Source: a virus (lineage: Duplodnaviria; Heunggongvirae; Uroviricota; Caudoviricetes). Taken from it: 48,357 bases of DNA. The notes below the pieces were generated by a model. It made no database searches, had not been told where the DNA came from, and saw nothing but the letters and a program-made list of their open reading frames with translations. Below, piece by piece: positions 30,713 to 31,963 of this stretch; positions within the stretch are counted from its first letter, which is position 1; every line of letters begins with the position of its first letter. A program made the translations under genes and the position numbers. The DNA lies in the IMG/VR virus record IMGVR_UViG_2718217867_000003, positions 1 through 48,357 of that record; one strand, 5' to 3'.

Positions 30713-31101
30713 AAATAGTCTCCCAGTGAAAGAAAATTCGAGTTGTGCTGTTACCATATCAAGGATGCTACTTATTTCTATATGAAAACAATAATAATCA
30801 TTTAATATGCATAATTATAATTAGCCATCAAGCATTCAAGAAACCATCAAGATATTGATATAAATCACCACAAAACCAATATCGCCTCATAAAATACCTA
30901 CGATTCTTTGTCTGTCGGAATCTTTTGTAAATCCTTGTTCTTCTCACCATGAATTTTCACGGGCTCCTCTTCCGGGGAGCTATTTTTTATCGTAAATAAC
31001 CACTCATTACAGATGAATTGGCCAAAATCAATATCCGTCACAGACATAGAGCAATAGAATTAATAACGTACGCATTTACTTATATACTTCCTTTATTCAC
31101 A

Positions 31102-31129
31102 AGCGACTCTTTAACGGGTCGCTTTTTTT
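31102..31129 (+). terminator. terminator-like hairpin with T7 tail
   Basis: stem GCGAC/GTCGC followed by TTTTTTT. Confidence 0.35.
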
Positions 31130-31257
31130 CGGACTATCACCGACACAATGTCAAAAAAAAGATCTGCATCACAAAAAAACTTATAAAAAAATCACAAAAT
31201 CCAAAACTCCACTACATAAACACTAATAAATATTGCTTCACATATTTTCATACTAGT

Positions 31258-31279
31258 GCCCTCGCAAGAGGGCTTTTTT
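31258..31279 (+). terminator. rho-independent terminator (GNRA-loop hairpin plus T6)
   Basis: GCCCTC-GCAA-GAGGGC followed by TTTTTT. Confidence 0.6.
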
Positions 31280-31410
31280 ATCTGGATGAAAAAACAATCA
31301 ACCATTAATAATAACATAGTAATATTGACTAAAGTCAAGGAAAAACAAATCATGACACCTAAAGATATAAGAGTTTTTCTGGAGGCGAATTTTGAAATGC
31401 ATTAGATTTT

Positions 31411-31438
31411 ACGGCTCTTTCACGGGCCGTTTTTTTTG
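31411..31438 (+). terminator. terminator-like hairpin with T8 tail
   Basis: stem ACGGC/GCCGT (imperfect extension) followed by TTTTTTTT. Confidence 0.4.
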
Positions 31439-31859
31439 CCTGAAATTATGCCAGAAGCCGTGCTGCATCATCTCACCAACATCAACGCCTCCTCAGTCCT
31501 GAATTAAGACTACGTGGTGATTTTTAGCCTAAAATCCCTGCCAAATACTTTCTATATAAACAAAAAACCGCCCATCAAGGAGGTAAAAAGATGGTTAGCT
31601 AAAGAGGTCATTATTATTATGATCTGAGGCGTCGGGTGCCTCCCGAAGTATATCAGCTCCTGACTAATACACTGTGTGTTCCCTCCCGCTAAACAGTTAT
31701 ACCTTGCCACCCCCGCCCTGGGGAACACCTCAAGATCCTTAATAGATTAAAATACAGCATTAATAATATAAGTGAACTACATCACATTATTTAGGCATAG
31801 AAATATGCATCAAAACAACAACAATATATCAACACTAATATCTCATTTCTTACAGATAC

Positions 31860-31887
31860 AAAAAAACCACCTTTAGGTGGTTTTTTT
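31860..31887. terminator. bidirectional rho-independent terminator downstream of Q (tR'-like)
   Basis: A7-CCACC-TTTA-GGTGG-T7; about 75 nt downstream of Q stop. Confidence 0.6.
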
Positions 31888-31963
31888 GTATCCGTGGGAT
31901 TGTTCGCCTCGCGATACAGCTTTGCGAAGCATAGCGAAATTGAAGCAGTTTATACGTAAGAAA

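Follow-up and report, generated by a model that had tools for sequence, protein, structure and literature searches.

A rare AT-rich tract with clustered anti-late terminators behind the Q gene of an Escherichia coli lambdoid prophage

Locus and gene content

The DNA analyzed here is the IMG/VR virus record IMGVR_UViG_2718217867_000003 (Caudoviricetes), taken at its full length of 48,357 nucleotides (the window), which is a nearly complete lambdoid prophage of Escherichia coli in which the minus strand encodes the late genes. The subject is an AT-rich tract directly behind the gene of the late antiterminator Q, in which four plus-strand hairpins (T1 to T4) with the build of intrinsic terminators are directed against late transcription. 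The stretch from Q and the late promoter pR' to the lysis genes is a cargo site of lambdoid prophages, where Shiga toxin, tRNAs, and the anti-small RNAs AsxR and AgvB are carried.

The Q-like gene (31964..32506, minus strand) belongs to the DUF1133 family (Pfam PF06576, E=1.4e-106) and scores just above the cut-off of PF06530 Phage_antitermQ with 27.2 bits vs. 26, and phage records annotate the homologous gene as antitermination protein Q. A class II holin gene, a YdfR-family gene, and a lysozyme gene follow downstream of it, all on the minus strand. Between Q and the holin sits a DUF2441 gene on the anti-late strand (29946..30458, plus strand; PHROG 5663, E=2e-59; homologues with PF10386), which is the likely source of plus-strand transcription into the tract.

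The first-pass annotation of this DNA had described the region behind Q as AT-rich and poor in open reading frames (ORFs), with three plus-strand terminators against the late direction, a 17-codon ORF just ahead of the third of them, and no sign of tRNAs, and all of these points were confirmed. Three features were absent from it: a fourth plus-strand terminator, a bidirectional hairpin at 31852-31895, and a minus-strand element resembling the small RNA (sRNA) STnc100.

The GC content over 30550-31600 is 0.31-0.37 compared to 0.45-0.51 in the flanks. No ORF in the tract is longer than 96 aa, and six tested ORFs of 40-96 aa gave no match to Pfam or PHROGs. In addition, a 1-nt indel at 31289 in six sister copies of the tract disrupts the two longest ORFs, and ARAGORN found no tRNA gene. 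The tract is without a credible protein gene. A type I toxin-antitoxin system was considered for a hydrophobic 53-aa ORF on the minus strand (31192-31353) and rejected, as the ORF is frameshifted by the 31289 indel in all six sisters and matches no family.

Plus-strand terminators

An intrinsic terminator was taken to have a GC-rich stem (5 bp or more) with a 3-8-nt loop, directly followed by a U-run, and the whole 48-kb window was scored with our own terminator score after d'Aubenton-Carafa (d). Seventeen sites had a positive score. Six of them are plus-strand sites, and five of the latter fall within 30963-31880. This clustering of plus-strand terminators is far beyond chance. The consensus scan returned the three sites named before at 31101, 31258, and 31411 (T2, T3, and T4), and as Q, holin, and lysozyme are encoded on the minus strand, they are indeed oriented against late transcription.

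T1 (30962..30988, plus; scan 30962-30981) is the additional terminator, with an 8-bp stem, a free energy of -13.3 kcal/mol (z -3.4), and a weak tail, AUUUUUU, that brings its score to d=1.4. It is the first terminator reached by transcripts leaving the DUF2441 gene. T2 (31101..31129, plus; scan 31101-31124) has a 9-bp stem followed by 7 U, with -13.1 kcal/mol, z -4.7, and a positive terminator score. T3 (31258..31279, plus; scan 31258-31273) has the form GCCCUC-GCAA-GAGGGC with 6 U and a very A-rich stretch before it; at -12.4 kcal/mol and d=36 it is the top plus-strand site of the window by terminator score. T4 (31411..31437, plus; scan 31411-31430) combines a 7-bp stem with 8 U at -10.9 kcal/mol, z -3.2, and d=24.

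Together, the four hairpins have free energies between -10.9 and -13.3 kcal/mol (z-scores between -2.9 and -4.7 relative to shuffled sequences), and all of them show the stem, loop, and U-run of the definition with scores above zero, T1 marginally so. Judged by fold and score, T1 to T4 are very probably real intrinsic terminators. The sole stem variant among seven copies of the tract is a C to T change at 30964 in T1, where the pair is retained as G-U.

The T2 and T4 hairpins (31104-31129 and 31412-31437) are 85% identical with one compensatory pair. Identical or near-identical hairpins of this type also stand behind unrelated ORFs on contigs binned as Neisseria and Myxococcales and on a JGI metagenome contig (L020, L031, and L019, respectively), and since they occur in unrelated bacteria, the likeness of T2 and T4 speaks only weakly for common descent. 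A degenerate T2/T4 hairpin pattern returned only copies of the tract with 97-99.5% identity in IMG/VR, while in GTDB genomes and JGI metagenomes its only hits were hairpins of chance or convergent origin, located behind unrelated genes of unrelated phyla. The hairpin sequence therefore looks like a recurrent terminator solution and not like a marker of homology. The idea that the four units are copies of one another was also rejected, as an internal-repeat search showed only the T2 and T4 hairpins to be alike.

The late cassette

The region behind Q was aligned between the window and three further prophages, two from E. coli and one from Salmonella, with Q genes 74-95% identical. The predicted late promoter pR' (TTGATT-N17-TTCAAT; 31939..31967, minus strand) has a -35 hexamer that overlaps the Q stop codon, and its hexamers and spacing are kept in four Q relatives (TTGATT/TTGCTT and TTCAAT/TTGAAT) with differing sequence around them. 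It is followed by the initial transcribed region GCTTCGCAAAGCTGTATCGCGAGGCGAA (31903..31930, minus strand), the presumed Q-loading and pause region, in which 28 of 28 nt are invariant: it is identical in the window, the two E. coli prophages, and the Salmonella prophage, whose Q is only 74% identical.

About 20 variable nt separate the invariant block from the bidirectional hairpin at 31852..31895, which has a CCACC/GGTGG core at 31867-31880 flanked by A7 and T7. Its arms of 21 nt are 95% complementary, with -29 to -30 kcal/mol and z around -9 on both strands, and its terminator score is positive on both strands as well. Among the relatives its position is fixed and its stem shows compensatory changes (CCACC/GGTGG vs. 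CCGCC/GCGGG). From fold, conservation, and score, this hairpin is identified as the terminator tR' of a conserved Q-pR'-tR' cassette. The hairpin is bidirectional in the Salmonella relatives, too. The assignments of pR', the pause, and Q binding are inferred from conservation and follow the layout of Q-dependent late cassettes as described in bioRxiv 10.1101/651190. An RNA of ~73 nt is predicted from pR' when Q is absent.

Boundaries, rarity, and variation of the insert

By blastn, the 1,242 bp of the window correspond to only 116 bp in Salmonella prophages that share its Q family, small ORF, DUF2441 gene, and holin. In these prophages, the small ORF, which in the window is the first late-strand ORF past the tract, begins ~25 nt after tR', and its similarity at the protein level shifts the left edge of the insert to ~30712. 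In other E. coli prophages with this Q, DNA homology is lost at 31902, and one of them, L010, stays homologous through tR' to 31850. The Salmonella gap and the L010 homology together delimit a module specific to this prophage type at ~30713-31850, that is, a rare AT-rich mosaic module of ~1.14 kb.

Among 5,426 complete E. coli genomes, blastn in distant mode recovered the insert in five, each with 98-99% identity; no phage record and no plasmid had it. The E. coli that carry it are not enterohemorrhagic (non-EHEC) and come from seawater, duck, and human isolates; strains KK19-02, PCP06235, and T-HYM1 are examples. Three IMG/VR contigs carry it with 97-99.5% identity. A protein search with the spurious 96-aa ORF of the tract returned one cluster at 94% identity and no diverged relatives. 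Across seven copies, 24 sites vary in the 1,242 bp.

An STnc100/PasD-type element on the late strand

At the gathering score, an Rfam search of the window returned only IS009 and RalA, both outside the tract. The covariance-model scan proposed by the first-pass annotation yielded nothing credible on the plus-strand units; what it did return, below threshold, was an STnc100 match on the minus strand. This match (RF02076, permissive mode) covers 31570-31758 (minus) with 26.8 bits and E=0.002, below the gathering score of 47, while genuine STnc100 copies score 105-208 bits. By blastn, 31615-31731 is ~75% identical to unannotated DNA on plasmids of enterotoxigenic E. coli (ETEC) and, next to phage tRNA genes, in other Q-to-holin intervals. 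In an alignment of eight sequences, 10 of the 29 consensus pairs show compensatory changes and the window forms most of the pairs, and the CGGGAGGCACCCG hairpin is invariant. With the sub-threshold Rfam match, the blastn relatives, and the covariation taken together, the element at 31562..31758 (minus strand) is identified as a diverged relative of STnc100/PasD. Its late-strand position between Q and the lysis genes is common to the window and to the copies in Sp5 of E. coli Sakai, L004, and L010.

The related sequences make up an STnc100-like subgroup whose members lie either next to phage tRNA genes, on the late strand, or next to 'tRNA-OTHER' on ETEC virulence plasmids, with a common CCGCC...GGCGG-U8 terminator. 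Where scored, they reach 30-36 bits (L002, 2953-3147; L004, 2215-2414 and 2997-3194, both copies in one prophage). L003 (~2940-3100) had no STnc100 match at E up to 0.05 and was placed in the subgroup by blastn and alignment. The subgroup, with members in prophages and on ETEC plasmids, is missed by the current Rfam threshold.

The window copy differs from its six near-identical sisters at two stems. A substitution at 31581 breaks the terminator stem (31568-31583; CCGCC to CCUCC), and another at 31677/8 breaks an internal stem (GCCAC to ACACAC). The terminator of the window copy (31562-31583) is thereby weakened to CCUCC...GGCGG with a central mismatch and d=1.5, whereas the six sisters have an intact CCGCC...GGCGG.

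Candidate plus-strand units and the 17-codon ORF

Two promoter-like sequences precede terminators on the plus strand. The one at 31060..31088 (TTAATA-N17-TATACT) would, if used, give an RNA of ~36 nt to T2, and the one at 31325..31353 (TTGACT-N17-AATCAT) would give an RNA of ~78 nt to T4 that starts downstream of the ATG of the 17-codon ORF. The TTGACT of the latter site is part of an inverted repeat of 14 bp (TTGACT-AA-AGTCAA, 31325-31338), through which both strands carry a -35-like TTGACT immediately ahead of the ORF. This repeat was rejected as an operator, as it is chance-expected in AT-rich DNA and imperfect in the six sisters (31333 A to G).

The 17-codon ORF (MTPKDIRVFLEANFEMH; 31352..31405, plus strand) lies where the first-pass annotation had placed it. 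It opens with ATG, has the Shine-Dalgarno sequence AAGGA 10 nt upstream at 31337-31341, and closes with a stop codon that ends 5 nt ahead of the T4 stem. It is intact in 7/7 copies with a single change among them, which is non-synonymous (31394, E15K).

The Rfam models of AsxR and AgvB (RF02703 and RF02702) gave no match at E up to 10 on either strand of 30400-32100. Mimicry of GcvB was considered because of five CACAA motifs on the plus strand (AgvB has CACAACA) and rejected, as duplexes with GcvB R1 are no better than those of shuffled sequences (p=0.4-0.9).

Proposed explanation

With moderate confidence, the tract is explained as non-coding cargo that occupies the moron slot directly past the Q-dependent late promoter, where small transcription units converge and the anti-late terminators end candidate sRNAs. 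Without Q, transcription from pR' would stop at tR' with release of the ~73-nt RNA. On the late strand of the insert, the STnc100/PasD-type gene would run from 31758 to 31562 and converge on T4. In the lysogen, T1 to T4 would end short transcripts from weak promoters in the AT-rich DNA, with candidate sRNAs of ~35-110 nt, of which the T4 unit would be the best defined. T1 is probably the terminator of the DUF2441 mRNA as well, and the four terminators would jointly shield pR' and Q from anti-late transcription. During lytic growth, Q-modified polymerase would traverse the tract on the other strand, where the hairpins lack a U-tract and should be unable to terminate.

The termination of short anti-late transcripts in the lysogen is the most likely role of T1 to T4 and the reading we prefer. 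We infer the transcription of the plus-strand units, their sizes, and any regulatory role, and an sRNA reading is favored because of the precedent in EHEC, where convergent sRNAs lie past pR' and the geometry of Sp5 is shared with the window. Of the two functions that the first-pass annotation had offered, sRNA genes or a leader-peptide attenuator, the former is plausible and fits the EHEC architecture.

Several observations weigh against this explanation. The promoter-like sites of the tract are no better than those of shuffled sequence in a consensus scan and in our own weight-matrix scan, and no Rfam family, AsxR and AgvB included, was found on the plus-strand units at E up to 10. For these two reasons, the view that T1 to T4 end functional sRNAs is put no higher than plausible. 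With all copies 97-99% identical, there is too little divergence for conservation or covariation of T1 to T4 to show, and variation in the tract slightly exceeds that of its coding flanks. The STnc100-like copy of the window, with its two stem-breaking substitutions, may be decaying. Furthermore, the other prophages examined have series of terminators in the late and not in the anti-late orientation.

Alternative explanations

The alternative that survives best, which we nevertheless regard as rather unlikely, is that T1 to T4 only insulate. They would then be a redundant backstop against plus-strand read-through from morons (DUF2441 and others further left), which would otherwise run antisense into pR', Q, and the early region, and no discrete functional sRNA would be made. 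The place of T1 as the first terminator downstream of the DUF2441 gene agrees with this, as do promoter signals at the level of chance, and the Salmonella relatives that lack the tract have only the bidirectional tR' as a terminator at that position. However, tR' of the window is already a perfect bidirectional terminator, which makes four extra ones redundant, and a backstop needs neither a 150-nt spacing nor a separately acquired module. The precedent in this slot also favors sRNAs.

A somewhat less probable alternative is that the hairpins are residual 3' ends of cargo or sRNA genes that were lost or inverted by mosaic recombination and have no present role. The rarity of the module (5/5,426 genomes), its AT-richness, and its slight excess of variation over the flanks are in line with such debris, as are indels in A-runs, the damage to the STnc100-like copy of the window, and the relatives that manage with 116 bp. 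On the other hand, pseudogene remnants were looked for in the tract and none were detected, and all four stems are intact in 7/7 copies with the one stem change preserving its pair, which is a weak argument at ~1% divergence.

We consider it doubtful that the 17-codon ORF encodes a genuine small protein, alone or within a dual-function RNA, from a transcript ending at T4. The ATG, the Shine-Dalgarno sequence, the stop codon 5 nt before T4, and the integrity of the ORF in 7/7 copies would fit such a coding role, but transcription from the best promoter-like site would begin past the ATG, the single substitution is non-synonymous, and the ORF has no homologues, with short ORFs being chance-expected in 1.2 kb.

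A leader-peptide attenuator, in which translation of the 17-codon ORF would control termination at T4, shares with the trp, thr, and phe leaders only the geometry of a short ORF ending a few nt before an intrinsic terminator and is rejected as highly improbable, since there is no gene of the same orientation past T4 (non-coding DNA of ~430 nt, which includes the minus-strand STnc100-like element, then tR' and the antisense of Q), MTPKDIRVFLEANFEMH is without the regulatory codon runs of those leaders, and the fold of 31360-31440 shows the terminator alone with no competing antiterminator (z = -0.45 vs. shuffles); in contrast to those leaders, no operon lies downstream, and matches to Rfam leader families fell on the tR' hairpin only, with E of 0.2 or more.

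Neighboring genes and other features of the window

The first late-strand ORF past the tract (30455..30712, minus strand) has the Shine-Dalgarno sequence GGGAG. RefSeq calls either 76 aa for it or no gene, while its start, MHSHHHQI..., resembles the N-terminus MDTYHHQI... of an 85-aa Salmonella homologue, and this comparison indicates a product of 85 aa. The ORF and the DUF2441 gene are convergent with a 4-nt overlap, and the same pair is found in Salmonella and Arsenophonus. It stays together in prophages of E. coli as well as of these two, in differing neighborhoods (29946-30712 in the window; L011, L015, and L016), and it is possibly a two-gene cargo, e.g., a putative toxin-antitoxin or defense pair. 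The Salmonella relatives have a second terminator on the late strand, placed between the DUF2441 pair and the holin (tR' hairpin and second-terminator sites of L011 at 4887-4910 (minus) and 5790-5809), which suggests that the two-gene cargo is bracketed by terminators there.

The two Rfam matches outside the tract are full-length. IS009 RNA was matched at 256-454 (minus) with 226 bits, and RalA, the antitoxin RNA of the Rac-type RalR/RalA system, at 46623-46801 (minus) with 224 bits. Another candidate unit lies within 36516-36616 (minus), where a near-consensus sigma-70 promoter (TTGCCA-N17-TATAAT, 11/12) is followed ~30 nt on by the strongest terminator of the window (GCCACACC-GUAA-GGUGUGGC + U8, d=67). 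Promoter and terminator predict an RNA of ~65 nt just after ORF 36619-37038, and the unit matches no Rfam family at the gathering score.

Comparison with known systems

The late cassettes of lambda, 21, and 82 have a Q-family gene followed by a promoter, a conserved initial transcribed region, and a terminator ~70 nt on, and in this respect the window is alike, with Q, promoter, terminator, and then holin and lysozyme in order. In contrast to these cassettes, the Q of the window is of the DUF1133 type. A phmmer search of the window Q against PDB gave Q21 chains as the best match with E=0.33 over 26 residues, i.e., no significant homology to a solved Q. The name 'Q21-type' was therefore dropped in favor of DUF1133-type Q.

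The element on the late strand resembles STnc100/PasD in its closing helix, its CCCC/GGGG hairpin, the hairpin CGGGAGGCACCCG, the late-strand orientation, and the Q-to-holin location. It differs in its sub-threshold score, in its affiliation with the 30-36-bit subgroup, and in the mismatches in the terminator stem and one internal stem. Pas sRNAs have been described in lambdoid prophages, with PasD near Q and PasA, PasC, and PasD1 adjoining the holin/lysozyme operon (Zhu, Shabalina and Storz 2026, bioRxiv 10.64898/2026.05.13.724894), and STnc100 has been located 75 nt downstream of stx2 (PMC12370729).

The closest precedent for the tract as a whole is found in EHEC. There, the region past pR' accepts moron insertions. 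In the Sakai prophages Sp3, 4, 5, 9, 10, 11, 15, and 17, it contains convergent sRNA genes, and the slot holds unusually short sRNAs of 51-60 nt that end in terminators (Tree et al. 2014, PMC4104026). EcOnc27/STnc100 is paired with EcOnc02/AsxR in Sp5, and AgvB occurs in Sp10 and Sp17 (PMC4104026). Inspection of Sp5 placed STnc100 on the late strand (L035, 6423-6628) and AsxR on the opposite strand (6630-6682). AsxR is built of an AU-rich 5' part, then a GC hairpin and a U-run, as are the units ending at T2 to T4.

The window and the EHEC pairs are alike in the slot between Q/pR' and the lysis genes and in a late-strand STnc100-type RNA converging on short units of the opposite strand. They differ in that the candidate units of the window have no similarity in sequence or covariance model to AsxR or AgvB; by blastn, they resemble nothing beyond the five E. 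coli genomes that bear the module, in a collection that includes Sakai. Four successive anti-late terminators are present in the window compared to one in the EHEC pairs, and the convergent 3' ends are ~125 nt apart in the window (31562 vs. 31437), whereas they abut in Sp5.

A bolder proposal, which we consider improbable, holds that the tract is an sRNA island with four independently transcribed anti-late sRNAs without known sequence relatives, of which one might double as the mRNA of a 17-residue peptide. They would be expressed in the lysogen, paired with the STnc100-type RNA, and act either on host RNAs, as Hfq-dependent regulators or sponges, or on leaky late transcription, as antisense brakes. 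If true, the one-on-one convergent pair of EHEC would be extended to a tandem array. In case the plus-strand units are not expressed, the tract would be a rare mosaic filler with orphan terminators. If expression does occur, the units would count as new prophage sRNAs of non-EHEC E. coli, and the slot could hold purely non-coding RNA cargo of several units. Under the preferred explanation, that of non-coding cargo with convergent small units, the tract would be a new and rare example of the known convergent-sRNA architecture in the cargo slot behind pR'.

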